In this document: positions 24,390-39,832 of the stretch, one piece after another | Numbering within the stretch: the first letter of the stretch is position 1 | Layout of the letters: every line of letters starts with the position of its first letter | Assembly (NCBI GenBank): GCA_963841755.1 | Contig: CAWJDX010000011.1 | Coordinates: forward strand, 412,604 to 476,603 | Direction: 5' to 3' | DNA: 64,000 nt | Origin: an uncultured Candidatus Rokubacteria bacterium | Lineage (GTDB): Bacteria > Methylomirabilota > Methylomirabilia > Rokubacteriales > CSP1-6 | Position numbers and translations under genes: made by a program | Notes under the pieces: generated by a model | Told to the model about the DNA's origin: nothing | The model's database searches: none | The model's input: only the letters and a program-made list of their open reading frames with translations

Positions 24390-25551
24390 ATGAAAAAGGT
24401 TCTCGCGAGTGTGTTGAGCGTGGTCACGATGGTCTCGCTCTCGGCCACGGTCGGGATGGCGCAGACCTCCTGCCCCGCCGAGGTGGCGTCGGCCAAGGCG
24501 ATGCTGAGCCAGACCGCCAAGGCTCAGGACGTGCAGGCACCCCGGTCGCTGGCGGGTGCGCGGCAGGACGTGCAGGCGCCGCGTAGCCAGGACATCCAGT
24601 CGCCCCGGAGCCAGGACGTTCAGGCGCCGCGGTCGCTGGCGGGTGCGCGGCAGGACGTGCAGGCGCCGCGTAGCCAGGACATCCAGTCTCCGCGTGGCCA
24701 GGACGTGCAGGCGCCGCGTGGTCAGGACGTCCAGTCTCCTCGTAGCCAGGACGTGCAGTCGCCCCGCAGCCAGGACATCCAGGCTCCCCGGTCGCTAGCG
24801 GGGGCGCGGCAGGACGTGCAGGCGCCGCGTAGCCAGGACATCCAGTCTCCGCGCAGCCAGGACGTGCAGGCGCCGCGCGGTCAGGACATCCAGTCTCCGC
24901 GCAGCCAGGACATTCAGTCGCCCCGGAGCCAGGACATCCAGTCTCCGCGCAGCCAGAACATCCAGTCGCCCCGCAGCCAGGACGTGCAGTCGCCGCGGAG
25001 CCAGGACATTCAGTCTCCGCGCAGCCAGGACATCCAGTCGCCCCGGAGCCAGGACATCCAGTCTCCGCGGTCGCAGGACGTCCAGTCTCCGCGCAGCCAG
25101 GACATCCAGTCGCCCCGTAGCCAGAACATCCAGTCGCCCCGCAGCCAGGACGTGCAGTCGCCCCGGAGCCAGGACATCCAGTCGCCGCGCAGCCAGGACA
25201 TCCAGTCGCCGCGGAGCCAGGACATCCAGTCTCCGCGGCAGCCAGGACGTGCAGTCGCCCCGTAGCCAGAACATCCAGTCGCCCCGCAGCCAGGACGTGC
25301 AGTCGCCCCGGAGCCAGGACATCCAGTCTCCGCGCAGCCAGGACATTCAGTCGCCCCGGAGCCAGGACATCCAGTCTCCGCGGTCGCAGGACATCCAGTC
25401 TCCGCGCAGCCAGGACATCCAGTCGCCCCGCTCGGCCGAGTTCAAGAAGGCCTCGACCCTCGTGAGCGAGGCTGAGGCGGCGTGCAAGGCGGGCAAGTCG
25501 TCCGTGGCGGCCGACAAGGCCAAGGCGGCGATGGAGCTGCTCAAGAAGTAA
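24390..25551 (+). CDS. Secreted tandem-repeat protein. It has a signal peptide, about 38 repeats of the octapeptide SQD(I/V)Q(S/A)PR, and a short helical C-terminal domain. The frame is broken inside the repeats near 25238.
   Basis: ORF 24342..25265 from the internal ATG at 24390 (AAGGA SD; MKKVLASVLSVVTMVSLSATVGMAQ...), joined to ORF 25249..25551 (...SAEFKKASTLVSEAEAACKAGKSSVAADKAKAAMELLKK). The junction unit ccgcggCagccagg carries one extra base compared with the neighbouring units. Confidence 0.7.
24520..25430 (+). repeat. Tandem array of about 38 units of 24 bp (consensus cagccaggacatccagtcgccccg), plus a few 39-bp variants carrying ctggcgggtgcgcgg.
   Basis: Direct reading shows contiguous in-frame units with no spacers. 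The variation is mostly at wobble positions and in I/V and S/A codons. Confidence 0.85.
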
Positions 25552-27638: not shown

Positions 27639-28360
27639 CTCGTCCCGCCTCCACCCTCCCGCCGTAGCGTCATCAGCAGCAGCATCGGCCACCCGACGTA
27701 GCGCGCGCCGCGCGGGTGCGCCGCCGCGAGGGCGACGTCGACCGCGTGCTCGCTCAGATGGTCGGTGACGAGTCCCGCCGACCGCGCGGCCGTCGTGTAG
27801 TCGCTCACCTGGTACGGAAAGCTCGCCGGCTGGATCGGCGCTCCCGTTCGCGCATCGTGGAAGCGCGCCTGCACCCCGCGCAGCATCATGGCCGGATGCA
27901 TGGCCGACACCACGATGAGGCCTCGGGGCGCGGGCGCGCAGACGCGGGCGAGCTCGCCGAAGAAGGAGGCCAGGTTCGCCACGTGCTCCAGCACCAGGCA
28001 GCAGAGCACGCGGTCGGCCGCGCCGTCGTCGAGCGGAAGCCGGGTGGTCACGTCGTGGAGGAGGAAGCGCACGCGCTCGGCGCCGGCCTTGGCCCGCGCG
28101 ATCTCGAGCATGCGCGGCGAGAAATCGAGCGCGGTGACCCGGGCGCCGGCGGCCGCGAGCCGCACCGCGTGCCGGCCGGTGCCGCAGCCGACGTCGACCA
28201 CCGCCAGCCTGTCGACCGCTCCCAGGAGAGGGTTGAGGTGGCGCTCCTCGAGCGCGATGAGCGGGTTGCCGTCGGTGTCGTAGACCTCGGCCCACCGATC
28301 GTAGCCTTCTCGCGTTGGCACCAGTCGGGGTGCGTCGGCGTCGAAATCCGGGTCGGTCAT
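27635..28360 (-). CDS. Class I SAM-dependent methyltransferase.
   Basis: ORF 27635..28609 trimmed to the ATG at 28358-28360 (MTDPDFDADAPRLVP...). It carries motif I (VVDVGCGTG) and motif II/post-I (ALDFSPRML, RVLCCLVLEH). Confidence 0.75.
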   Translation of the reverse strand: MTDPDFDADAPRLVPTREGYDRWAEVYDTDGNPLIALEERHLNPLLGAVDRLAVVDVGCGTGRHAVRLAAAGARVTALDFSPRMLEIARAKAGAERVRFLLHDVTTRLPLDDGAADRVLCCLVLEHVANLASFFGELARVCAPAPRGLIVVSAMHPAMMLRGVQARFHDARTGAPIQPASFPYQVSDYTTAARSAGLVTDHLSEHAVDVALAAAHPRGARYVGWPMLLLMTLRREGGGGTS

Positions 28361-28411
28361 CGCCGCGCCCGCCTTTGCCCCGATACCGCGGGAGAGGGCC
28401 GAAACCCCAAC

Positions 28412-28486
28412 CTCAAGACCGCCAAGGTCCTGCGCTTGACGATCCCCCCGTCCCTCCTCGCGAGGGCCGACAACGTCATCGAGTGA
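28412..28486 (+). pseudogene. Orphan 3' remnant of a PF04392-type ABC substrate-binding protein gene.
   Basis: It translates to ...NLKTAKVLRLTIPPSLLARADNVIE*. This matches the conserved C-termini of the two intact island paralogs (NLKTAKALGLTIPPSLLQRADQVIE). Nothing upstream is homologous. Confidence 0.5.
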
Positions 28487-28608
28487 TCGGAGGGTGCCGC
28501 GAGGGCTCGTCAAGGTGGGTGACCCTCCCTCGAACGCGGCAGCAGTGCGGGTGCCGCAGCCGCATCGAGAGAGGGCCCATCTACGCCGGCTTCGACGACC
28601 GACCGGCA

Positions 28609-28626
28609 AATGGTGGAGGGTAAGGG
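28609..28626 (+). repeat. Left direct repeat (attL-like) of the tRNA-Ala-associated island.
   Basis: ATGGTGGAGGGTAAGGGA is identical to 39756..39773, which is the 3' end of tRNA-Ala. The left copy is embedded in an imperfect palindrome (ggtggagg...cctccacc). Confidence 0.6.
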
Positions 28627-28805
28627 AGCCTCTCCCTCCTCCACCGCCATCCTCGGAAGTGCGCGTCGTACCTGATCAGCACGCTACCGCTGTCCTTTCG
28701 CAATGAGTTGCGACCGGCGATGGTGTTCCTCTTCCATCGCGTGGCGTGCCCTTCACGCGATACCAACGAGACCAATGGGAAGGAGACCGAACTAGCTGCC
28801 TGACC

Positions 28806-29162
28806 TTACGCGCGGGCGTAGTTGCTCGCCCCGAACCAGTCGACGACCACGACGGGTTCATTGCCGACGACCCACGCGTCGTGGCCGGAGGGCAACGCGG
28901 TCACGTCGCCGGGAAGGGCGTCGAACTCCGAGCCGTCGGACATGACGATGTGCAACGTGCCCGACACGTGGTACTGGAAGTGGGGTGCTTCGCACCAGGC
29001 CGTTTTCGCGATCGGCTTCACGTGCTCCGACCACTTCCACCCGGGCTGGAGCGTGAGCTTCCCCACCACGCCGCCGCCGATGTTGACCAGTTCCGCCTTC
29101 CCCTTTGGGAACTCTTGAACTTGGTCCGGTTTGCCGAACAGCTTGTGCTCCGCAGATGCCAT
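28806..29162 (-). CDS. Cupin-domain protein.
   Basis: Intact 118-aa ORF (MASAEHKLFGKP...HFQYHVSGTLHIVMSDGSEF...). Its GC and codon usage look lower than in the core genes. Confidence 0.75.
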   Translation of the reverse strand: MASAEHKLFGKPDQVQEFPKGKAELVNIGGGVVGKLTLQPGWKWSEHVKPIAKTAWCEAPHFQYHVSGTLHIVMSDGSEFDALPGDVTALPSGHDAWVVGNEPVVVVDWFGASNYARA

Positions 29163-29358
29163 AGCACTCTCCTTGTCTTGTCGAGTCCTCGTTCGTCGAT
29201 AGCGCGATTCTATGCAGTGCGAATCGCCCTCGTCAACCGTTCAGCGCCCCGTACGGGACTACGAGTCCTGCGGTGTACTTAGGTCTTGCCCCGCCAGCTA
29301 CACTGGAAGTGTGAGACCGCCGACCCGCACCGCTCCCGCTCCCGTCACCGTCGTTGCC

Positions 29359-29601
29359 ATGCAGCCCACCATAGTGGCCCGCCCGTTCCACGTCGAGGGG
29401 TTCGTCTACGAGGAGAATGTTAACGGCTACCGCATAGTGGCCTACAAGCAGGGGAGAGGCGGGGAGGAGGAGGGAGTCATGAGCGCCGATAACCGGCGGA
29501 TCGACGGTTCCAACGACGACTTCGCCCTGCTACGCCGACTCTTGGCCGAGGCCGTCGAAGAGGGTCGGCTCCGAGGGTACAGGGCAAGGCACGCCTCCTG
29601 A
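29359..29601 (+). pseudogene. Remnant of a LigD-like ligase N-terminus. Only about 30 aa of homology remain, followed by an unrelated tail.
   Basis: MQPTIVARPFHVEGFVYEENVNGYRIVAYKQG is paralogous to the N-termini at 36954 (AQPFHRDGWVYEEKYGGWRMVAYKDG) and 32979 (VPRPFHTKRWVYEEKYDPWRMLAVKEAG). Confidence 0.45.
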
Positions 29602-29624
29602 GGCAGGGGCAGTAAACTGAAGGC

Positions 29625-29990
29625 ATGGCCCGGGTGCTGATCGTGGACGACGAGCCGGTCATGCGTGAGTTGATCGAGGTAACGTTGGAGGACGCCGGCC
29701 ACGCCGTCGAGAGCGTCGCGAGCGGCCGCGCCGCGCTGGAGCGACTCGCGCAGCACGCCTATGACCTGATCGTGTGTGATCTGCACATGCCGGATCGGGA
29801 CGGGCCGGCTGTCTACCGCGCGATCGAGCGGCGGTCGTCACCCCGGCCGGCGTTCCTGTTCATCACGGGCTACGCCGAAGGCGGCCCCTACGAGGAGTTC
29901 ATCAGGGCCACGCGGTCGCCGGTCATGACCAAGCCGTTCGTCATCGACGTCCTGCGGGAGACGGTAAGCCGGCTGCTCGGCGGATCATAA
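29625..29990 (+). CDS. Stand-alone response-regulator receiver domain (CheY-like).
   Basis: Intact 121-aa ORF with the DD, D54-equivalent (IVCDLHMPDRDG), T and K (MTKPF) positions. A GAAGG SD precedes it. No cognate kinase lies nearby. Confidence 0.8.
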   Translation: MARVLIVDDEPVMRELIEVTLEDAGHAVESVASGRAALERLAQHAYDLIVCDLHMPDRDGPAVYRAIERRSSPRPAFLFITGYAEGGPYEEFIRATRSPVMTKPFVIDVLRETVSRLLGGS

Positions 29991-30059
29991 CGCGATAGCC
30001 CTGGTCGGGAGACTGGAAAGAGATCGTGTCCTCCGTCACCTCCCCTTCGCGCGCCTCCC

Positions 30060-30203
30060 CTACCACCGCCGCCCAACCCACTCCAGGATGTCGGGTGACT
30101 CGTCCCGAGTCACCAGGTCTCCGTCGAGGTGCTTCAGGATCTCGACCTTGGCGCGCTGGGGATCCCGCCGCAGCAATCCATCCAGCGGTTCCAGTTTGTT
30201 CAT
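30060..30203 (-). CDS. Small hypothetical protein (47 aa).
   Basis: MNKLEPLDGLLRRDPQRAKVEILKHLDGDLVTRDESPDILEWVGRRW, starting at the internal ATG of ORF 30060..30275. There is no homology call. Confidence 0.25.
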   Translation of the reverse strand: MNKLEPLDGLLRRDPQRAKVEILKHLDGDLVTRDESPDILEWVGRRW

Positions 30204-30428
30204 GACCCAAGCGGGGTGGACCCGGGCCGGCCGGACGGGCCGAGGCCTTCTCGATGGGCGCCCACTCAGCCGCATCCACGCCGAGACGAGGCCCGGGCCC
30301 GCATCTGCTCCTCGGAGGCTTCAGCCCCATCTGACTGGCGTATCCAGGGCAAGAGCTGCAACATACGTGCGCTGTTCCAGCGGCCGAGTTGACCTGGACA
30401 CTATGCGGGCGGAGCAAGGAGAACACGT

Positions 30429-31688
30429 ATGAGTGAAGCGTTGGGTGGGCTCCTCCTCGGCGTCGTGATCCTCTTGGCCTTGGTCGTGTGGTCGATCCGC
30501 CGCCATAGAGACCCTGACCTGCACGTCGAGTGCGACTCGCCTATCGACGAGCTGATGCCCACGCTCTCGGGCTTGACGCTGGGCACGGCGGTGGCCGGCA
30601 ACAAGGTGGAGGTGCATGAGAACGGTGCCTTCTTCGATGTATTGATCGGCCGCATCCAGGCGGCGAGAAACTCCGTGCACTTCGAGACCTTCTTGTGGAA
30701 GGAGGGCGCGCTCGGCCGGCGTGTGGCCGACGCGCTGATCGAGCGAGCGAGAGCGGGCGTGAAGGTTCGCCTACTGCTAGACGCAGAAGGCTCGAAGCAC
30801 GCGGGCAAGGCCGTCGTGCAGGAGATGCGCGACGCGGGCTGCCGCGTGGTGTTCTTTCACGAGCGGAGGCTGCGAAACATCGGAGTATTCAACGACCGCG
30901 ACCATCGTAAGCTGATGGTGATCGACGGGCGCGAGGCCTTTGTGGGCGGTCATTGCGTCGTGGACCAGTGGCTGGGCAATGCGGAAGACGGAAAGCACTA
31001 CGGCGACATCAGCCTGCACCTCCATGGGCCGATCGTGCACAGCGTGCAAGGCGCCTTCAGTGAGAACTGGGCTGGCGAGACCGGCGAGCTGTTCGTGGGC
31101 GAAGACGTGTTCCCGGTGCTGGAACCGGCGGGCGAGGTCTTGATGCACGCCGTGTTCGCTAAACCCGAGAACTCGGCGCCCGCGGTGAAGATACTCCACC
31201 ACACCGCCATCTGCCTGGCGCGCGCGCGCATCTGGATCCAGAACCCCTATTTCATCCCCGAGCCAGATGCCATCGACGCCTTCGGTGATGCGGTGAAGCG
31301 CGGCGTGGACGTGCGGGTGCTGATGCCGTCGACCAGCGGATCGGACAACCCCATGGTGCAGCACGCCGGCCACCGCAACTTCGAGAAGCTGTTGAGGTGC
31401 GGCGTTCGCCTGTTCGAATACCCGCACACCCTGCTGCACCAGAAGGTCATGACTGTCGACGGAGTCTGGAGCGCCGTTGGCTCGAGCAACTTCGACGACC
31501 GCTCGTTCGAGACAAACGACGAGATCACCCTGTCGATCAGGGACGAGGCGCTCGCGCAGCGCCTCGACGCGGTCTTCGAGAAGTACGTCCCGCGCGCGAC
31601 AGAGGTGCAACTCGAGCGGTGGCGCAAGCGCCGGCTGACGCACAAGCTGAAGGATAACTTCTTCTATCTGCTGAACGAGCTGCTCTGA
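30429..31688 (+). CDS. cls: Cardiolipin synthase / phospholipase D family protein with two HKD motifs and an N-terminal transmembrane helix.
   Basis: Intact 419-aa ORF. The HKD motifs are HRKLMVIDGREAFVGG and HQKVMTVDGVWSAVGSSNFD. Confidence 0.85.
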   Translation: MSEALGGLLLGVVILLALVVWSIRRHRDPDLHVECDSPIDELMPTLSGLTLGTAVAGNKVEVHENGAFFDVLIGRIQAARNSVHFETFLWKEGALGRRVADALIERARAGVKVRLLLDAEGSKHAGKAVVQEMRDAGCRVVFFHERRLRNIGVFNDRDHRKLMVIDGREAFVGGHCVVDQWLGNAEDGKHYGDISLHLHGPIVHSVQGAFSENWAGETGELFVGEDVFPVLEPAGEVLMHAVFAKPENSAPAVKILHHTAICLARARIWIQNPYFIPEPDAIDAFGDAVKRGVDVRVLMPSTSGSDNPMVQHAGHRNFEKLLRCGVRLFEYPHTLLHQKVMTVDGVWSAVGSSNFDDRSFETNDEITLSIRDEALAQRLDAVFEKYVPRATEVQLERWRKRRLTHKLKDNFFYLLNELL

Positions 31689-31940
31689 CAGACAGATCGG
31701 GCCCCGCCTCCGCTGCTGCAGCGGGCTCGATGCCCTTCGCTGGTGAACCGGGCCTCGACCTCGGTGAGAAGCTCGGTGACACCGGGCAGCTCGATGGCCC
31801 CACCGAGATGGCGAGGTAGACAACTGTGTCTGGGCGGTCCTGGGACAACTGCCGCAACTGGACCAGCGGGTCGACCTTACCTCGGCTCCGCGCCGTCGGT
31901 CGAGGCGAGATGACGCGTCTCTCGTCGCCCTTTCTGCGCG

Positions 31941-32675
31941 CTATCCGCCAGCCGCCTTCCGGCGCGCGGCCAGGCCCACGCCGACCATGGCGGCGCCGAG
32001 CAGGGTCAGGGTGGCGGGCTCAGGCACCGGTGAGGTGGCGCTGGCACTGGCGAAGCCGTCGACGGAGTCGGTGAGCAGCAGGCTGTGGAGGCCGGGCGTC
32101 AGGTTGAGCGTGAGCGGCACCGTCCCCCCGTCGGTGATGGTCTCGAAGGGGGGCGCGATCGCCACGTCCTCGTTCAGTTTGACCTTCACGCTGCCGTCCA
32201 GGAGCACCGAGTAGCTGAAGCCGGCCGCCGCAAACTCGTTGGCTCCGGCCGAGGCCACCACGGTCGCGCTCCAGCCGATCGTGATCGGGAACGCGACCGA
32301 GAAGTTGTTGTCGTTCAGGATGGCTCCCGTGGTGGTCGCACTGGCCATCGACATCGCAAGGGACGTGGGTGGTGCGCTCGCCGAGCCCGACACGAACACT
32401 TGGATCACCCCGGGAACCACTGGAGACCCGCTGCGGCTGGCAACGGCGTCGCCGATCTGCAGCACGGGCCCCAGCGTCACCACCCCTTGGGAGAGCGTGA
32501 TCCCAGTGCCGGGCGGCAGCGCGTCCGGCGCGCTGACCGACAGGGTGACGTCTCCGCTATAGATCGCGACGGCGGCCGCGGGCACCGGAGCGATCAAGGC
32601 ACTGCCGGCGAAGACCGCCGCGATCAATAGGACGCGGAGCGGGATGGCAGTCGAAGGGCGGCCGAGTCTGCTCAT
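31941..32675 (-). CDS. PEP-CTERM sorting-domain protein (putative exosortase substrate).
   Basis: Intact 244-aa ORF with a signal peptide and the C-terminal VPEPATLTLLGAAMVGVGLAARRK motif. An AGGAGG SD precedes it. Confidence 0.8.
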   Translation of the reverse strand: MSRLGRPSTAIPLRVLLIAAVFAGSALIAPVPAAAVAIYSGDVTLSVSAPDALPPGTGITLSQGVVTLGPVLQIGDAVASRSGSPVVPGVIQVFVSGSASAPPTSLAMSMASATTTGAILNDNNFSVAFPITIGWSATVVASAGANEFAAAGFSYSVLLDGSVKVKLNEDVAIAPPFETITDGGTVPLTLNLTPGLHSLLLTDSVDGFASASATSPVPEPATLTLLGAAMVGVGLAARRKAAGG

Positions 32676-32978
32676 GGCGTACCTCCTGCTCTCGCATGGC
32701 GAGCGGCACTGCGAAGAATTTCTAGGCAGGACGGAGATTGGGTCATGGCATCTCCAAGTCCGATGGATCCCAGGCCAATGAGTCAGTGACGGGAACCAAC
32801 CCGACCCTATGCGCCTCGGTCCGCAACGTCAAGGGCCGGTGCGCCGTTCGCCCGTCGCGTCCGAGGTGACCGCTCCGGAGGTCGCGGGTCCGGCTAGGCG
32901 GCGACCTCCCGGGGCAGGTACTCACCACGAGAACCCCCGCAATTCCTAATTATCGGTATCGCGTAGATTCGTTCCTCC

Positions 32979-33355
32979 ATGGAGCCGCCCGACCTCATGC
33001 ACGCCACGCAAGTCCCGCGCCCGTTTCACACGAAGAGATGGGTCTATGAAGAGAAGTACGACCCGTGGCGAATGCTCGCGGTCAAGGAAGCTGGTGGCGT
33101 GCGGCTCGTCAGCCGGAACGGCCGGGACCACACCAAGCGCTTTCGCGCGATAGCCGAAGCACTCGCGGCACTCAAGCCCAAGACCCTCACCCTCGACGGT
33201 GTAGTGGCGGTGTTCGACGCCGAGCTAGTTTCCCGCTTCGAGTGGCTCCGTAGGACCCGGAGTCACCTTACGTGGCCGGGCGCACCCTCAAGTGGCTCAA
33301 GGTGAAGCAACCCGAGTACCGACTAGAGAAACGCGGTTGGGCATGAGGGAATAGC
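32979..33355 (+). pseudogene. LigD-like ATP-dependent ligase paralog with an internal deletion (about 330 nt missing relative to the 36361..36954 copy) and a frame change.
   Basis: The N-terminal part MEPPDLMHATQVPRPFHTKRWVYEEKYDPWRMLAVKEAGGVRLVSRNGRDHTKRF...SRFEWLRR is followed, in another frame, by PYVAGRTLKWLKVKQPEYRLEKRGWA*. This corresponds to the extreme C-terminus (SPYLGGRSLSWLKVRQRDYRVEERGW) of the intact copy. Confidence 0.55.
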
Positions 33356-33375
33356 CCCTCCGGCAGAGTCAGTAA

Positions 33376-33540
33376 TCAGACGCTCGGGCCGCCTGGCGGC
33401 GAGGGCATGTGGTGGTCGTGCTTGCGTCGTTCTTGCTCAAACTCGTGAGGCTGGGGCGCCATTGTCCGCCGCCTGCTAATGAGATAGGCGAGTGCAGCGA
33501 CTCCACTTACTACTAGAATCACGAATACCGCGAGCCACAT
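33376..33540 (-). CDS. Small hypothetical membrane protein (54 aa).
   Basis: MWLAVFVILVVSGVAALAYLISRRRTMAPQPHEFEQERRKHDHHMPSPPGGPSV, with a GGGAGGGG SD upstream. It is below the ORF-track threshold. Confidence 0.3.
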   Translation of the reverse strand: MWLAVFVILVVSGVAALAYLISRRRTMAPQPHEFEQERRKHDHHMPSPPGGPSV

Positions 33541-34052
33541 CTCGACCCCTCCCACTCACTATGCAGCCACCCGGGCAAAGTATGGCACAGGCTAGCCCCC
33601 AGGAGCGACGAGCACCGTGGGAGAGTGCGGCGTTAAACAACTGGCCGCATTCCTAACCTTGGGCCAAGGACGCTACCAGAACACTGCTAGACCGGGCAAG
33701 CCCTTGGCGCTACGCTTCCTCTACCGGGTGCTACGGCCGCGCCCGGCTTCGCCCGAAGGGGATGAGCCGCCCTCTTGAGGCTGCCACTTCGGGCTCTAGC
33801 TCGCCAACCAGCCGCCGCGAGCGCGGATTGTAACTGCCAAGTCGGCCGCACCAGCGGCACAGACAACGTAGTAGGTTCGCGTGCATCTGGGTGGTCACGA
33901 TTCAACCAGTCTACCGGATGGTGGACGCCGCGCTGACCCCGCCGTAATGATCCTTGACTACGTACGCGCGATGGTGTTGACTCACGGCCTCACTCGTCTA
34001 GTGGCGTGTCCCTATACTAGATGGTCTATCGCACCGCCGGGAGGAGAACCTA

Positions 34053-34418
34053 ATGAGTCAATCTGAGATCGCGGCCGTGAATCGTATGTTTGAGGAAGCA
34101 GCGAGCAAAGGGGACCTTGATACCCTCGCCTCGCTGTACACCAAGGACGCCGTAGCCCTTCCACCGGACGGGCCGTTTGTCAGGGGCCGAGACAATATAA
34201 AGCAGATGTGGGCGGCCATTGCTCAGCAAATCGGGCTGAAGAGCGTGAAGCTCGAGACGGTCGATCTCGAGGTGGCCGGCGAGATGGCACATGAGGTCGG
34301 TGAGGCACAACTAACTCTTGGATCCGGTACTGCGGTTGCGAAGTATGTCGTGGTCTGGAAAAAGACGGATGGGCAATGGCGTTTGCATCGGGACATCTGG
34401 AACACGAAGGCCACATAG
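34053..34418 (+). CDS. SnoaL-like / NTF2-fold (DUF4440-like) protein.
   Basis: Intact 121-aa ORF with a GGAGGAG SD and noticeably lower GC. Confidence 0.75.
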   Translation: MSQSEIAAVNRMFEEAASKGDLDTLASLYTKDAVALPPDGPFVRGRDNIKQMWAAIAQQIGLKSVKLETVDLEVAGEMAHEVGEAQLTLGSGTAVAKYVVVWKKTDGQWRLHRDIWNTKAT

Positions 34419-34924
34419 CGGCGCGAACTCGTCTCCGGAGTTCCGGGAGGCGGCGGAGCGGCCGGTGGCGTTCCAGGCCTGGGCGTCTCAGCAGCAGTTG
34501 TAGGCCGCGTCGCAGCAGACTGGGCGGATCCTCGATATCGCTGCGCTTCGTCGTCCCGATGGACAGGGACGTGCAGTGCCGCCCTAGCGGATCATAGAGG
34601 TCCAGGCCACCCATCGCTGTAGAGTCTCGTTCCGAAAACCCCTCCCTGCCGCCCCGAAAGTGCGCACCGAGTCAGAGCTCCGCCCCCCGTGAAGTCCCGT
34701 GCCGAAATCAGGTGATTCCGGGACAGCCAGACCGTACCTCTCGGTCTAGCCGGGTGGCGTCGCTCCGGGAACGGCGTCATGGTCCCCGCGCCATGATCTC
34801 GTCCCGGATGGCCTGACGAGCAGGGTCGCCCGATCCCCGCCTACCCCTGCCCGCGCTGCGGTCTCGTCTCGCAGTCAAAGGTTTCTCTCGAGAGAACCCC
34901 AGCTCATAGTGCTGCTTGGCTTGA

Positions 34925-36187
34925 TCAACCTTGGCTGTCGTCGATACGCCTCCGGCCGCGGGTCAACCCCAATCCCGCCATTATGGTCCCGAGAAGCAGT
35001 AGCGTCGTCGGCTCAGGGACGGGAGCGTCCGGGACGTCCGCAATAAGTGGCGTCATCGTGCCCGTGAAGTCTCCGTCGCCGACGAAAGTGAGCCCAGTGA
35101 TGAATGCGGTGACGTTGTTCGGATCGAGCCCCGCCGACGTCTCGATGCCGGTCACGTCGAAAGCACTGACACCGCCCTGTGGGAAAAAGAACTGAGTATT
35201 CGCAGCAATCTGCTGAAGGATGGTGTTTTGGCCCAGCAGAAAGGACAGCAGGAACAGATTGTCGCCCACTGACGGAAGCGTTACCGAGGCAAAAGTCGGG
35301 TTGCCGGTGCCGGTCGCGTATTTGTAGCCAATCGCGACGGCGGGGTCGATGAAGATCGTTTGTCCTCCCTTGATCCCTTGAACTTGGAACTGATACGGCG
35401 CATTGATCCCGGGACCCCGCGTGGGAATGAACGCGGCTGGCTGCGGTCCCGAGAGCGGCGAGAAATCGAAGAACGAATTCGACCGGCTGAGGATGCTGGA
35501 ATTGGGAAGGCTCCCGCCGGGAGACGGCGTTACGTGGTTCCGAGAGTCGATCAACTGCACATTAAGGACATATTGTCCGTTCGACTTCAGAACACCAGCG
35601 GGAACTTGAAAGCTCGATTGGGCGCCGGTGAGATTTGCGGAAAAGATAATATCGTTCTGTCCATTCGAAAGGACGATGCTCTTGTCGTAGACTTGCACAC
35701 GGACTGCATCCGGATTGAAGCCACCTGGGACCGTCCAACTGAGGGTCGGCGTCGTGCCCGAGTTGGAAATCGTTACGCTCGCTGGAAAGGGTATCGGGTC
35801 CGTTGGAATCCCCGCCAAGCTGGGGGTCAAGGCGGTTGCTGTATCGGCCCCGTTCTGAAACGTGAGCGCCCAGGAACCGAGCCGGCTCGGATTGAAAGCC
35901 GGACCGCGAGCGCAGAAGTTCGGGTCCACCGCCAGTGGCACGCACGGGGTAGCGGCCAGCGTTATGCCCTGCACCGCAGCGATAGTCGTCCCAAGAGCAG
36001 GCACAACGTCCGCACCAAATTGGTTGACATCACCTGACGCGATGCCAACGTCGTTCGCGCCGCGGAAATCGCGAAAGTTGTTCAGGTTGGTGATGTTCGT
36101 GATCGGCGCGCCGTGCGCGGTGGGGAGATCAGTAGAGATCAGAAGGGCGATGGCGGTGAGGACGGCGCCGAAAGCTCGAAGGATCAT
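34925..36187 (-). CDS. PEP-CTERM sorting-domain protein (second copy, unrelated in its body).
   Basis: Intact 420-aa ORF with a signal peptide, a Ser/Thr/Asn/Gly-rich body and the C-terminal VPEPTTLLLLGTIMAGLGLTRGRRR motif. Its GC is lower. Confidence 0.8.
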   Translation of the reverse strand: MILRAFGAVLTAIALLISTDLPTAHGAPITNITNLNNFRDFRGANDVGIASGDVNQFGADVVPALGTTIAAVQGITLAATPCVPLAVDPNFCARGPAFNPSRLGSWALTFQNGADTATALTPSLAGIPTDPIPFPASVTISNSGTTPTLSWTVPGGFNPDAVRVQVYDKSIVLSNGQNDIIFSANLTGAQSSFQVPAGVLKSNGQYVLNVQLIDSRNHVTPSPGGSLPNSSILSRSNSFFDFSPLSGPQPAAFIPTRGPGINAPYQFQVQGIKGGQTIFIDPAVAIGYKYATGTGNPTFASVTLPSVGDNLFLLSFLLGQNTILQQIAANTQFFFPQGGVSAFDVTGIETSAGLDPNNVTAFITGLTFVGDGDFTGTMTPLIADVPDAPVPEPTTLLLLGTIMAGLGLTRGRRRIDDSQG

Positions 36188-36360
36188 GGGATACCTCCCT
36201 GAGCGGACGGTCGGACGCAGGCAGACTACCGCAGCATCCTCGGCTGAACCAAGAGCTTTCGATCCCAGCAGGTGTGCTTACTGTGTACGTCCCTGCCGTA
36301 GCTTCCGAGATGGCCTCGCGGGCCACCCGCAGGAGCAGGTGACGAGCCGACGCGGACGGT

Positions 36361-36954
36361 CTATGCCCTGTTCCTCGGGTCCCACCCGCGCTCCTCCACC
36401 CGGTAGTCCCGCTGCCGGACCTTGAGCCACGAAAGCGACCGCCCACCGAGATACGGTGAGGATTCATCCTTGCCGACCATGCCCTCGTAGCCGCGCTCGA
36501 GCACCTGCTGCCATGCCTTGAGCCCTTTGTCGGCCAGCCGCCGCGCCGGGAACAGCAGTGTGTGGTCGTTCTCCAGGAGCCGTTCGAGCTCTGCCCGTCG
36601 CTCTCGTAGCGGCAGCGGCCGCAGGTCGCGCCGATCCAGGTACAGGCAGTCAAAGGCTATGTAGACCGGCGGGGTCGAGGCGGCATCCTCCGGACGCTTG
36701 CGGAACCACTCGAACCGCGAGATCAGCTGCTCGTCGAAGATCGCCACTTCCCCGTCGAGGATCAGGGTCAGGACCGGAAGGGCGCGGATCGCGGCGGCCA
36801 GCTCCGCGAACCGCCGCGCGTGGTCCTTGCCGGCCCGGCTGATCAGCCGGACGTGGGTGCCGTCCTTGTAAGCGACCATGCGCCAGCCACCGTACTTCTC
36901 CTCGTACACCCAGCCGTCGCGGTGAAACGGCTGGGCGACTTCGGTGGACTGCAT
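36361..36954 (-). CDS. ATP-dependent DNA ligase family protein (LigD-like). It has only the NTase domain and its motif I is degenerate.
   Basis: The 197-aa ORF starts at the internal ATG at 36952-36954. It has motif III (LDGEVAIFDE), motif IIIa (YIAFDCLYLDRRDLRPLPLRERR), motif IV (EGMVGKDESSPY) and motif V (WLKVRQ). Motif I reads EEKYGGWR rather than KxDGxR. There is no OB domain. Confidence 0.7.
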   Translation of the reverse strand: MQSTEVAQPFHRDGWVYEEKYGGWRMVAYKDGTHVRLISRAGKDHARRFAELAAAIRALPVLTLILDGEVAIFDEQLISRFEWFRKRPEDAASTPPVYIAFDCLYLDRRDLRPLPLRERRAELERLLENDHTLLFPARRLADKGLKAWQQVLERGYEGMVGKDESSPYLGGRSLSWLKVRQRDYRVEERGWDPRNRA

Positions 36955-37155
36955 GGGGTCAACCTTGGGGAGGTTGGTCACCCTTCCAGTGTACGGGCCG
37001 GGGGAACCCGGGCCGGCTTGGCGGGATGCACGATGCTGGCCCGCAGTCGCAGGTGATCCACACGCGATCCGGCTCGACGGCGGCGTCCAGATCGCCACAG
37101 CGGCGATGCTCCTGGAGGAAGGCGTCGAGGGTGGCGAGCAGCTCGGGCATCGGGA

Positions 37156-38148
37156 CTACTCGATCACCTGGTCCGCCCGCTGGAGGAGCGACGGCGGGAT
37201 CGTCAGGCCGAGCGCCTTGGCGGTCTTGAGGTTGATGACCAGCTCGAACTTCGTGGGCTGCTCGATCGGGAGGTCTCCGGGGCTCGTCCCCTTCAGGATC
37301 TTATCGACGTAGGTTCCGGCCCGCCGGTTCAAATCGGGAATGCTCGCTCCATAGGCGACGAGGCCACCAAGCTCGACAAACTCCGTTGCATTGAACATCG
37401 AGGGTAGGCGGTGGCTCGCGGCGAGTCCGACGAGACGGCGTCGCTCATAGTAGAACATCGGGCTGGGAAAGGTGACGAGGGCACCGGCATGCTCCTTGGT
37501 CATCGTAGAGAATGCACGGTCCAACTCGTCGGAGGTCCGCACCCCGACAGGAATAAGCTGTACTTTCAGTGCCTGCGCGACCGCGCCAGTTTCCTTGAAC
37601 ATCTCGCGAGTTGTGGGTTCGCCGAAGGCGCCCGGATGCCAGAGGGTAGCGACCCGAGACGCTCTGGGAACTACCTCCTTCAGAAGTTCGAGACGCTTGG
37701 GGACTAGCCCCGGGCCGAGGAACGTAGACCCCGTGATGTTTCCCCCGGGCCGCGCGAGGCTGGCAACGAACCCGTCCCCTACTGGATCACCCAACGCGGG
37801 TGCAACGATGGGGATCGTCGTGGTCGCTTGCCGAACCGCCCGGGCGACAGGGGTACTCGCGGCGACGATGACATCGACTTTGAGGCGGACGAGTTCAGTG
37901 GCCAAATCTGGTAGCCTCTCCAGTCTTCCTTCCGCTGCCCGGTACTCGATGATGATGTTCTGCCCCTCCACGTAGCCATGTTCCCGAAGTCCTCGACGAA
38001 GGTCATCAGGACGCGAGTCACGTGATTCAAATGAACCGGCTATCAGGTAACCGATCCGTGGAGGTTTCGCACCCGTCTGTGCCTTGGCGGTAAACGGCAC
38101 CGCCACGAGCCCGCCTGCCACGGTCCCGATGAAGCCCCGCCTGTCCAC
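37156..38148 (-). CDS. ABC transporter substrate-binding protein (PF04392 family) with a twin-arginine signal.
   Basis: Intact 330-aa ORF with an MDRRGFIG Tat motif and the conserved C-terminus LTIPPSLLQRADQVIE. Confidence 0.8.
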   Translation of the reverse strand: MDRRGFIGTVAGGLVAVPFTAKAQTGAKPPRIGYLIAGSFESRDSRPDDLRRGLREHGYVEGQNIIIEYRAAEGRLERLPDLATELVRLKVDVIVAASTPVARAVRQATTTIPIVAPALGDPVGDGFVASLARPGGNITGSTFLGPGLVPKRLELLKEVVPRASRVATLWHPGAFGEPTTREMFKETGAVAQALKVQLIPVGVRTSDELDRAFSTMTKEHAGALVTFPSPMFYYERRRLVGLAASHRLPSMFNATEFVELGGLVAYGASIPDLNRRAGTYVDKILKGTSPGDLPIEQPTKFELVINLKTAKALGLTIPPSLLQRADQVIE

Positions 38149-39122
38149 TACTCGATCACCTGATCCGCCCGCTGGAGGAGCGACGGCGGGATCGTCAAGC
38201 CGAGGGCCTGGGCGGTCTTGAGGTTGATGACGAGTTGGAACGTGGTCACCTGTCGGATAGGTACCTCGCTGACCGGCGTCCCCCGAAGAATCGTGTCGAC
38301 GGTCTCAGCGAGCAAGCGGTAAAGCTCGCGGAGGTCGTAGCCGTAAGAGAGGAGGCCGCCGAGTGGGGCGAAGTCCGAGAGCTCGCAGATCGTGGGGATT
38401 CGATGCTTCAAGGCAAGGTCCGCCACTGTCTTTCGGTGGAGGCCCACAAGGCGGCTGCGCAATACCAGGACCCCTTGAGCGCGTCCGGCTCGAAGCGCCA
38501 AGAATGCCGGGTCAAGATCCTCGACGCGAAGAACTGGCTCGATCCGGAGGCGGATACCCAACGCCTTCCCACTCGTTTCGGCTACTCGGACAGCCGCGCT
38601 GACCTCAGATCCTCCCTTGAGGACGCCTGCCCGAGAGAGACCTGGGATGGCCTCTTTCATGAGGGCCAACTGCTTGCCAACAACCTCGGGCATCAGGGTC
38701 TGGGTTCCGGTGACGTTGCCGCCAGGTCTGGCGACGCTGGCCGCGAGCCCGCTCTCCACGAGATCTTCCGCTTCAGACACGACGATCGGGATCGTTCGGG
38801 TCACCTTCTGCAGGAGCTTGGCATGGAGGTCACCTGAGACGACGAACATATCCACGCGCGATCGCAGAAACTCGGCGGCCAGGTCGGGAATGCGCTCGGG
38901 CTGATCACCATAGGTTCGGCGTTCGACAACGAAGTGCTGCCCGTAGACCCAACCAAGCAGTCGCATCCGGTCGTACCATTGCCCCTCGCCCGGTGGGGTG
39001 CTCGGTAACCCGGCAAGGAATGATCCAATCCGGTACACCTTCCCAACCTGCTGCGCCTCGACGGCGAGCGGCGCGGCGAGGAGGCTGCCGGCCAAGGTGC
39101 CGATGAATGCACGTCGGTCCAC
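38148..39122 (-). CDS. ABC transporter substrate-binding protein (PF04392 family), a tandem paralog with a twin-arginine signal.
   Basis: Intact 324-aa ORF with MDRRAFIG and the same C-terminal motif. Its stop and the downstream start overlap by 1 nt. Confidence 0.8.
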   Translation of the reverse strand: MDRRAFIGTLAGSLLAAPLAVEAQQVGKVYRIGSFLAGLPSTPPGEGQWYDRMRLLGWVYGQHFVVERRTYGDQPERIPDLAAEFLRSRVDMFVVSGDLHAKLLQKVTRTIPIVVSEAEDLVESGLAASVARPGGNVTGTQTLMPEVVGKQLALMKEAIPGLSRAGVLKGGSEVSAAVRVAETSGKALGIRLRIEPVLRVEDLDPAFLALRAGRAQGVLVLRSRLVGLHRKTVADLALKHRIPTICELSDFAPLGGLLSYGYDLRELYRLLAETVDTILRGTPVSEVPIRQVTTFQLVINLKTAQALGLTIPPSLLQRADQVIE

Positions 39123-39755
39123 TACGAAGCCCTCACTTGGCCGCGTCGTTTAGGAGGGACAGGGCGGGGCGGCCAGCGGCACGACCTTACACCAAGAGGC
39201 CGAGAGAGAGCAGCCTAGTAGTAGTCTCGCATCCGGCCAACCTGCTGGTGCAGGCGTTTGCGACGCCAAAGATAGGTGTTCCGATTGTGTAATGCCCTGT
39301 GCCTAGACGCCATAACTACTATGTCGATAGATGCCTCGTGCCCGCACGGACCGTCAACGTTGGCAGGAGGAAGTAGCAGAGCTGCCCGAACAGATCGATC
39401 GCTGGCAATCCGAGTTGACAACGCTCTCCCCCGGTGACCGCGTGCGGCGGGAGATGCTGGAGTGGACAATCCCGGCGGCTCGGCTGCGGAGGAGACGGTG
39501 GCAAAGTGGATCGAGCAGGCGGACACCGAATCGACCTAGCCGCACCACCCCGTGCGCCGGGTGCGGTGTTGTCGGGCCTCCGTGAGGCAGGCGGGCCGGC
39601 ATGCGGGTCTCAGTCTACGGGTCCCAACCCACGAGGGCCGAGTGAGCCTAGATGCGGTGCTGGCCGGCGTCCACTCACGTCCACCGGCGTCCACGCTATC
39701 CGACGCCGATGGGGTGAGGGCAGGTCAACTACGCGATTTTCCGCGTGAGGAATTC

Positions 39756-39773
39756 ATGGTGGAGGGTAAGGGA
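39756..39773 (+). repeat. Right direct repeat (attR-like), which is the 3' terminal 17 nt of tRNA-Ala plus 1 nt.
   Basis: It is identical to 28609..28626. Confidence 0.6.
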
Positions 39774-39832
39774 TTCGAACCCTCGACCTCGGCGTTGCGA
39801 ACGCCGCGCTCTCCCAACTGAGCTAACCCCCC
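39757..39832 (-). tRNA. tRNA-Ala (anticodon CGC), with an encoded CCA.
   Basis: The minus strand reads GGGGGGTTAGCTCAGTTGGGAGAGCGCGGCGTTCGCAACGCCGAGGTCGAGGGTTCGAATCCCTTACCCTCCACCA. The cloverleaf folds, the anticodon loop is TTCGCAA, and the G3:U70 alanine identity pair is present. Confidence 0.9.

Follow-up and report, generated by a model that had tools for sequence, protein, structure and literature searches.

Three LigD-type ligase sequences at successive stages of loss in a tRNA-Ala island of an uncultured Rokubacteria bacterium

Why would one bacterial genome carry, within 8 kb, three related ligase sequences in graded states of decay? They lie in a 64,000-nucleotide stretch of DNA (hereafter the window) from an uncultured Candidatus Rokubacteria bacterium (GenBank assembly GCA_963841755.1, contig CAWJDX010000011.1, positions 412,604 to 476,603 of the forward strand), and all three resemble the nucleotidyltransferase (NTase) domain of LigD-type ligases. 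A prediction made earlier from the letters of the window took them for a module of an island that was repeated and is being eroded, or for members of a non-catalytic ligase-domain family. The best explanation as a whole, to which we assign a probability of about 0.75, is that the window contains a decaying accessory island at a tRNA-Ala gene, and that this island holds three members of a conserved ligase family that lacks the OB domain.

Three ligase sequences within 8 kb

The 197-aa product of the open reading frame (ORF) at 36361-36954 was used as a tblastn query against the whole window. Besides matching itself on the minus strand at 36361-36954, it found a second sequence in two parts, at 32997-33254 in frame +3 (48/86 residues identical, E 3e-29) and at 33254-33340 in frame +2 (18/29 identical, residues 163-191, E 3e-9), and a third at 29359-29454 (20/32 identical, E 1e-8). 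Chance similarity is excluded because everything else in the window matched at E >= 0.4. The three sequences, numbered by position, are as follows.

29359..29454, forward strand: ligase copy 1, a 32-codon N-terminal stub (MQPTIVARPFHVEGFVYEENVNGYRIVAYKQG) in which K20N and D22N destroy motif I, inside an ORF at 29212-29601 whose tail is unrelated
32997..33340, forward strand: ligase copy 2, a pseudogene with codons 1-86 in frame +3 and codons 163-191 in frame +2
36361..36954, reverse strand: ligase copy 3, an intact NTase-only ORF of 197 aa from the ATG at 36954, probably 206 aa from a GTG at 36981

The tblastn matches confirm the claim of three related ligase sequences within 8 kb, and the gradation described for them also stands: the copies are LigD-type ligase sequences at three stages of loss, represented by an intact ORF, by a deletion with a frameshift and by a stub.

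Copy 3 encodes an NTase domain without an OB domain, because both Pfam and the NCBIfam model for ligases of non-homologous end joining (NHEJ) cover the NTase half only. The Pfam match is to PF01068 alone (E 1.7e-28, profile positions 13-203 of 204), with no PF04679 match in the same scan, and the NHEJ-ligase model TIGR02779 aligns over positions 5-186 of 302 at 151 bits, under its cutoff of 227.75. PF09414 (RNA_ligase) matches weakly (E 2.9e-4), also under its cutoff. Motifs III (LILDGEVAIFD), IIIa (YIAFDCLYLD), IV (EGMVGK) and V (LSWLKVR) are present, and the protein terminates 15 residues past motif V. Motif I reads EEKYGGWR, with KYGG where KYDG is expected. The original prediction had thus correctly described both the domain content of this 197-aa protein and its motif I, in which the lysine of KxDG is kept and the aspartate is replaced by glycine. 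By sequence, the nearest solved structure is the ligase domain of Mycobacterium tuberculosis LigD (~31% identity, E 6.7e-18), and an AlphaFold2 model of copy 3 best matches the same domain (PDB 1VS0 and 6NHZ), then archaeal and human ligases, all at a Foldseek probability of 1.0. As modeled, the catalytic domain has a ligase fold; a fold other than that of a ligase and chance similarity, the two results that had been named in advance as fatal to the prediction, were both looked for and neither emerged. The residues upstream of the ATG match the N-terminus of the closest homologue (VTNLPKVDPMQ in the window, MTNLPKIDPMQ in the homologue), so that the true start is probably the GTG at 36981, giving 206 aa.

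Relative to intact homologues, copies 1 and 2 show the frame disruption or loss of essential parts that defines pseudogenes. Copy 2 has lost codons 87-162 plus 1 nt, a deletion of 229 nt that is accompanied by a frameshift and takes motifs IIIa and IV with it; the N-terminus and the C-terminal codons are indeed kept in different frames, as first noted, but the deletion is smaller than the roughly 330 nt then estimated. Its Pfam match covers PF01068 profile positions 16-98 only, and two positions that are invariant in the family are substituted, G23P in motif I (KYDP) and E69V in motif III (LDGV). In what follows, L and P numbers denote the loci and proteins of family homologues used for comparison. 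The ratio of nonsynonymous to synonymous divergence (dN/dS) between the surviving codons of copy 2 and L006 is still 0.15, which suggests that the lesions are recent relative to the divergence of this copy. Copy 1 keeps 32 of ~200 codons and is without the catalytic lysine (EENVNGYR), and the ORF that joins it to its tail has no Pfam match, in accordance with the ~30 homologous residues and unrelated tail reported before. Motif I is therefore damaged in all three copies (KYGG, KYDP and NVNG). None of them is expected to be a normal enzyme, copy 3 being at best impaired in AMP transfer or sealing.

The proximity of the copies invites the view that one ligase-containing module was duplicated inside the island and that its copies were then progressively eroded. 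In its favor, the three copies lie in less than 8 kb; copies 1 and 3 also resemble each other in part ahead of their start codons (inverted repeats I3 and I6), and other families of the island are doubled as well, there being two ABC_sub_bind and two PEP-CTERM genes. However, homologues elsewhere are closer to the copies than the copies are to one another. Over its N-terminal part, copy 2 has 74% identity with L006, from a metagenome-assembled genome (MAG) of the Acidimicrobiaceae, and 65-68% with several metagenome proteins, versus 56% with copy 3; for copy 1, identity is 72% with the subclade of P0048, P0052 and P0091, versus 62% with copy 3. Synonymous divergence (dS) between copies is 0.8-3.0, which is saturated, copy 3 has the opposite orientation to copies 1 and 2, and the copies share no flanking genes. 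Since each copy is nearer to homologues in other genomes and dS is saturated, the copies are not local duplicates, and the idea of a repeated module, or of paralogues made in place, finds very little room here; we consider it highly improbable. Their placement in different subclades instead implies separate arrival or old, diverged paralogues. On these sequence comparisons, the three copies represent different lineages of the OB-less ligase family gathered within the same 8 kb.

A second way to produce such an arrangement would be for the ligase gene itself to serve as an integration target, with elements inserting in its 5' part, bringing a replacement 5' end and leaving an N-terminal stub (copy 1) and a restored gene (copy 2) in direct orientation, much as islands that target tRNA genes leave the end of the tRNA in duplicate. 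The first two copies have the same orientation and are 3.6 kb apart, with cargo between them, integrases occur near some family members, and N-terminal fragments turn up often, both in metagenome loci (residues 1-38, 1-111, 6-105 and 11-66) and as cluster representatives. Yet comparison of the copy 1 end with copy 2 shows no identical crossover core, no integrase lies between the two copies, and fragment end points vary by locus, many metagenome fragments perhaps being cut at contig ends. We therefore think this origin quite unlikely and retain a gathering of separate family members as the preferred account.

A conserved ligase family without the OB domain

To what, then, do the three copies belong? 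A search of 5.8 billion proteins with copy 3 returned 3,559 matches, the best 120 of which are 60-88% identical to it, nearly all 190-230 aa long, and match PF01068 alone; a profile search of 1.84 billion cluster representatives gave 513 clusters (50% identity) at E <= 1e-30. Family proteins are ~195-206 aa long and comprise the NTase domain only, and in at least 20 genomic relatives the frame stops 0-15 codons past the end of the NTase match. In more distant relatives ~105-123 further codons encode an OB domain; these are ordinary LigD/LigC-type ligases, often with an adjoining Ku gene, and the closest relatives of this NTase+OB kind (L016, L030 and L035) are 53-58% identical over the NTase part. 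The hosts of OB-less genes are mostly Methylomirabilota/Rokubacteria MAGs, one Rokubacteria MAG having at least four family copies, and further hosts belong to the Gemmatimonadota, Acidimicrobiia, Vicinamibacteria, Thermoanaerobaculia and Holophagales. In a rough neighbor-joining tree, three OB-bearing relatives fall among the OB-less members, a hint, from a tree too crude to rely on, that the OB domain was lost more than once.

The catalytic residues are strongly conserved. Among 112 aligned full-length members E18, G23, K30, E69, D74, E82, E157 and D163 are invariant, and K20, D22, R25, K162 and the WLKVK of motif V are conserved in at least 90%. A C-terminal tail, Y-R-x-x-E-R-G-W, is likewise conserved. 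KxDG is present in 110 of 111 full-length homologues, the exception having alanine, and copy 3 of the window is the sole sequence with glycine in this alignment. Pairwise dN/dS among seven family members is 0.09-0.38. Because catalytic residues are conserved under purifying selection, the family is not non-catalytic by sequence criteria, contrary to the earlier suggestion of a non-catalytic ligase-domain family. It is, judged on these alignments, a genuine, conserved OB-less derivative of LigD-type ligases. The family appears to be new relative to described LigD-type ligases, and the window locus is a case of ordinary island decay. We found no account of an OB-less LigD-like family, or of Rokubacteria ligases, in the searchable literature, where absence is no proof of absence. 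Single substitutions at conserved motif positions also occur elsewhere, as KVAG in L008, KSGG in L023 and, in motif IIIa, FGVLY for FDxLY in L020, which together with L010 comes from Rokubacteria MAG MFD09212.bin.1.136. These ORFs are intact, with dN/dS of ~0.2, so point lesions or tolerated variants of catalytic motifs recur in the family.

A gene for an NTase domain alone could also belong to a split ligase, with the OB domain supplied by another gene. LigD modules are encoded as separate genes in some bacteria and archaea, which makes the arrangement conceivable. When five OB domains of the closest NTase+OB relatives were used as tblastn queries, nothing was found in any frame in the window or in 26 NTase-only loci with flanks of up to 10 kb on each side, the sole match having an E of 0.02. 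This excludes linked split genes and, with no conserved neighboring gene at these loci either, we find a split ligase hardly plausible.

The window likewise gives no sign of an NHEJ locus. An M. tuberculosis Ku query had no tblastn match in the 64 kb at E<=1, and the same query finds Ku in five control loci (L008, L040, L056, L057 and L069); a Pfam scan of ten genes in and beside the island identified none as Ku. Polymerase/primase and phosphoesterase modules are neither fused to copy 3 nor found beside it by Pfam, its neighbors being PEP-CTERM and ABC_sub_bind genes. With no Ku, OB, polymerase or phosphoesterase module present, the initial judgment that this is not a standard NHEJ locus was sound.

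An island at the 3' end of tRNA-Ala

The setting of the three copies is an island bounded by a tRNA gene and a repeat of its end. The features on which its description depends, together with cargo referred to below, are these.

28610..28627, forward strand: left boundary repeat, 18 nt (ATGGTGGAGGGTAAGGGA) that repeat the tRNA-Ala 3' end exactly and in direct orientation, found by repeat search (blastn-short 18/18, E 1.2e-4)
29625..29990, forward strand: response regulator of 121 aa with a REC domain only (PF00072, E 1.2e-23), directly after copy 1
33723..33798, forward strand: one copy of a structured repeat (~80 nt, two hairpins) that blastn shows to be dispersed over other loci; island cargo
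37156..39122, reverse strand: tandem pair of ABC_sub_bind genes (PF04392; 37156-38148 and 38148-39122, Pfam E 5e-50 and 2e-32), between copy 3 and the tRNA
39757-39832, reverse strand: tRNA-Ala(CGC) (ARAGORN; Rfam RF00005, 67.8 bits), with the right-hand direct repeat at 39756-39773 as integration site

The tRNA-Ala(CGC) gene is the sole tRNA that ARAGORN finds in the window, and the repeated 18 nt correspond to its last 17 nt plus one flanking base. The span from 28,610 to 39,773 is 11.1 kb and deviates in composition: GC content is 0.61-0.67 at 28-40 kb versus 0.69-0.74 outside, and GC content at third codon positions (GC3) is 0.66-0.89 inside the island versus 0.9-0.99 outside. Three relatives (L209, L210 and L211) were located through the neighboring slipin gene, at 96-98% protein identity, and share the gene order NfeD, slipin, tRNA-Ala, a variable segment, HIT and ABC transporter. 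Nucleotide homology between the window and these relatives (77-91%) ends at window positions 39742-39756, at the tRNA 3' end, and resumes at 27704 (L209), 28320 (L210) and 27645 (L211), at the methyltransferase or the HIT gene. The 11.1-kb island is not at this site in any of the three. The variable slot holds a pilin-like gene in L209 (10931-11725), Metallophos, beta-lactamase and methyltransferase genes in L210 (6148-8893), a DnaJ-domain gene in L211 (10975-12347) and the island in the window, where the slot spans 27645-39756. The tRNA-Ala site is an integration hot spot, hypervariable among close Methylomirabilota relatives, and the direct repeats, the tRNA gene and the absence from relatives bear out the island setting that had been proposed.

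The cargo comprises a cupin gene, the copy 1 stub, the REC-only response regulator, a PLD-family protein, two PEP-CTERM genes, the copy 2 pseudogene, a DUF4440 gene, copy 3 and the two ABC_sub_bind genes. No integrase or integrase remnant was found in the island by tblastn or with a hidden Markov model (HMM) built from the integrases of homologous loci, which were few as seeds, and no long ORF occurs in the 635 nt that separate the last gene from the tRNA. Like other tRNA-linked genomic islands, that of the window has a tRNA edge, a direct repeat of the tRNA 3' end, deviant composition and strain-specific cargo; unlike active ones, it is without integrase or excisionase and is a patchwork of pseudogenes and expanded paralogue families. 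For these reasons we regard it as no longer mobile, a fossil and not an active element: a decaying accessory island inserted at the 3' end of tRNA-Ala(CGC).

The site also bears traces outside the island. The tandem ABC_sub_bind genes overlap by stop and start codons, and over the last 155 nt the two show 79% identity; this family is greatly expanded in these genomes, with a nearly invariant C-terminal LKTAKALGLTIPPSLLQRADQVIE. At 28408-28484 on the forward strand, ~125 nt outside the left direct repeat and between this repeat and the methyltransferase gene, lies a 77-nt remnant of an ABC_sub_bind 3' end (its translation ends in LKTAKVLRLTIPPSLLARADNVIE), which is inverted relative to 37158-37234 and 38150-38226 and 82% identical to them in nucleotide sequence. 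The remnant points to an earlier round of insertion and decay at this hot spot. Farther out, 24525-25431 is a tandem array with a 24-nt period, ~26-32 copies and ~80% matches (consensus CAGGACATCCAGTCGCCGCGCAGC, an 8-residue repeat if translated), and the syntenic gene of the relatives, which encodes 355-362 aa with no Pfam match, gives many offset, self-similar matches to this array.

Elsewhere, the surroundings of OB-less ligase genes are as variable as those in the window. Clustering of 277 neighboring proteins from 26 loci revealed no family common to most loci, the recurrent neighbors being ABC_sub_bind, a small response regulator and a small protein in four loci. ABC_sub_bind recurs near the ligases of L005, L010, L011, L018, L023 and L086. 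The response regulator of the window is 62% identical to one that immediately precedes the ligase gene of L005, and 67% to that of L087 and L088, which lies ~600 nt upstream of the ligase; PEP-CTERM genes are further recurrent companions. Immediately upstream of the OB-less ligase in several Rokubacteria loci is a small protein with the motif ALGFLQVxPTEPELQxLHRWLDTWxGxGLV (L008 9311-9610; L020 6116-6427 and 9481-9936; L011 6667-6855; L043 2573-3514), which has no counterpart in the window. Tyrosine recombinases lie 1-5 kb from the ligase in L001-L003 and L086, and in L004 the end of a conjugative element, with TraG, relaxase, methylase and integrase, is near the ligase. Genes around family loci typically have a lower GC3 than core genes, and many family matches, among element-seeded metagenome loci and cluster representatives, are fragments or N-terminal parts fused to unrelated tails; since fragments are so common elsewhere, the stub and the deletion copy of the window are typical of a fast-turnover family. 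Several copies per genome, low-GC3 variable regions, occasional integrase or conjugative neighbors and frequent fragments would together fit accessory, mobile-element-associated cargo with rapid gain and loss.

Three other comparisons were made. PADLOC gave no match for copy 3 or for two homologues, and PHROGs gave only the generic phage ligase family, so that a known defence system was set aside. In plasmid and phage databases only relatives of at most 40% identity were found, and the three inspected are full NTase+OB proteins. A tblastx comparison of the island with all loci was uninformative, being dominated by high-GC noise.

The ~80-nt repeat at 33723..33798 has further copies in L086 (8640-8715), L004 (8607-8679), L087 (1302-1375), L014 (120-195), L005 (11830-11889), L085 (1654-1701), L001 (6282-6342), L019 (10638-10690) and L089-L168, and at least 120 exact metagenome matches to a 26-nt pattern of the element come from soil contigs of Methylomirabilota-like type. 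Its first hairpin, P1, is CCGGGYG...CRCCCGG, and its second is an 11-bp stem (GCCCGAAGGGG/CCCCTTCGGGC) that encloses a smaller hairpin with A-U to G-C covariation; the element is often followed by a T-rich stretch and often stands just past stop codons or ahead of start codons. In ligase-seeded loci it has the orientation of the ligase in nine of nine cases. In the reciprocal search, a ligase match was present in only 12 of 80 element-seeded loci, on both strands, and ABC_sub_bind in 29 of 80. A ligase-linked RNA or recombination site is rejected on this count, and the element is a high-copy dispersed repeat of variable regions and not a ligase-specific partner. It has no Rfam family and a single-sequence folding z-score of -1.0, and could be a repeat akin to repetitive extragenic palindromes (REP) or miniature inverted-repeat transposable elements (MITE), a terminator module or a small RNA.

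What an OB-less ligase may do

Intact members of the family keep the motif I lysine, which accepts AMP from ATP, the motif III glutamate, the motif IV glutamate and lysine and the motif V lysine. Because all residues of a covalent nucleotidyltransferase are kept under purifying selection, intact members are probably active; they would form Lys-AMP and act on nucleic-acid ends as adenylyltransferases or strand-joining enzymes. The missing OB domain and motif VI, which in canonical ligases serve in lysine adenylylation and DNA clamping, would make step 1 the weak point of the family. Because these parts are absent, we propose that OB-less members would need a partner in trans or would be restricted in their reaction, for example to joining pre-adenylylated ends or to adding AMP to 5' ends. 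An isolated NTase domain of this kind has an experimental parallel in T4 RNA ligase 2, whose N-terminal NTase domain self-adenylylates and seals pre-adenylylated ends without the C-terminal domain (Shuman-laboratory literature). That domain belongs to the Rnl2 clade, is an experimental truncation and acts on RNA, whereas the family described here is natural and known from its sequences.

The LigD ligase domain and LigC-type ligases (TIGR02779; M. tuberculosis LigD LigDom, PDB 1VS0/6NHZ) share motifs I, III, IIIa, IV and V, as well as the N-terminal signature P..W.YE.K.DG.R, with the window family, but the latter ends 10-15 residues past motif V, about where the OB domain of LigD starts, and is without the OB domain, motif VI and any Ku, polymerase or phosphoesterase partner. 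By sequence resemblance, it descends from LigD/LigC-type ligase domains and would work like them, minus the OB domain and motif VI. Chlorella virus ligase and bacterial LigE are small, stand-alone ATP-dependent cores with the same NTase chemistry and motifs; they keep NTase plus OB, in contrast to the NTase-only proteins of this family. Temperate rhizobiophages (Rhizobium phage PPF1 and Sinorhizobium phage phiLM21) carry a LigD-clade ligase, ~35% identical to the window family, as cargo beside attP and the integrase, which provides a precedent for ligase cargo at the integration end of a mobile element. The rhizobiophage ligases are 330-348 aa long and include an OB domain, unlike the OB-less proteins of the window, which reside in a degraded chromosomal island without integrase.

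What the loss of the motif I aspartate means for copy 3 bears on how far its decay has gone. The original prediction held that a ligase without it would be adenylation-impaired. This is not supported: the aspartate is discussed as serving the transfer of AMP from the enzyme onto DNA, for which a direct role is hypothesized, and the sealing reaction (steps 2 and 3), and not the adenylylation of the lysine (PMC6035275). The defect of copy 3, with KxGG, thus probably lies in AMP transfer or sealing and not in self-adenylylation. The alternative is that copy 3 and the few KxGG and KxAG members are functional variants in which the aspartate is dispensable, for example because they carry out lysine adenylylation only, or nucleotide binding. 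The published mutants divide on this point, since human LigIV D275A is proficient on pre-adenylylated DNA, and the D29A mutant of Chlorella virus ligase shows no detectable activity, or only traces of it, when the DNA is adenylylated (PMC6035275). Copy 3 departs from columns of at least 90% family consensus at two positions only (D22G and T173S), which is the family median of 2. However, the aspartate is retained throughout nearly all full-length homologues (110/111), both neighboring copies in the island are certainly dead, so that the local setting is one of loss, and pairwise dN/dS over a long branch is blind to recent inactivation. On balance we doubt that copy 3 is a functional variant, and an impaired copy remains our preferred interpretation.

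Several observations nevertheless weigh against the account given here, some of them in favor of such a variant. First, the ORF of copy 3 is intact, with a low dN/dS of 0.09 relative to its nearest homologue, and its D22G substitution, a single A-to-G change (GAT/GAC to GGT, codon at 36889-36891 on the minus strand), could be an assembly or sequencing error. Second, the alanine-bearing L008 (KVAG) and the glycine-bearing L023 (KSGG) have dN/dS values of 0.22 and 0.20 relative to their aspartate-bearing sister copies; with no relaxed selection in either, loss of the aspartate may be tolerated and not inactivating. Third, the AlphaFold2 model of copy 3 is moderately confident, with a mean predicted local distance difference test (pLDDT) score of 63.7, termini below 50 and a core of 80-93. 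Fourth, an integrase is near the ligase in only three distinct contexts of ~30 with usable flanks, and the integrase HMM came from few seeds, for which reason the mobile-element link of the family is suggestive and not established. Finally, a partner in trans is purely our inference, as the loci revealed no conserved operon partner.

NTase plus OB is considered the smallest scaffold able to ligate effectively, and four bacterial ATP-dependent classes are recognized, LigB, LigC, LigD and LigE (PMC7470946). A large OB-less family with catalytic residues under purifying selection does not fit this scheme. Either the NTase domain, alone or with a partner, does a useful reaction, or these proteins do something besides classical nick sealing. 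We speculate, tentatively and with less than even confidence, that OB-less LigD-like proteins could form a fifth class of bacterial ATP-dependent nucleic-acid ligase or adenylyltransferase, one with a single NTase domain that mobile elements carry across soil phyla (Methylomirabilota, Gemmatimonadota, Acidobacteriota and Actinomycetota), and that its turnover might reflect a role in mobile-element biology or in host-element conflict, such as re-sealing or adenylylating DNA or RNA ends made by nucleases. The Joint Genome Institute (JGI) pipeline labels family proteins 'bifunctional NHEJ protein LigD', a label that misleads when NHEJ capacity is inferred from metagenomes. The locus matters less than the family, and illustrates clearly how a tRNA hot spot gains accessory genes and then erodes them; if the fifth-class reading were true, the window would show one genome discarding three such genes.

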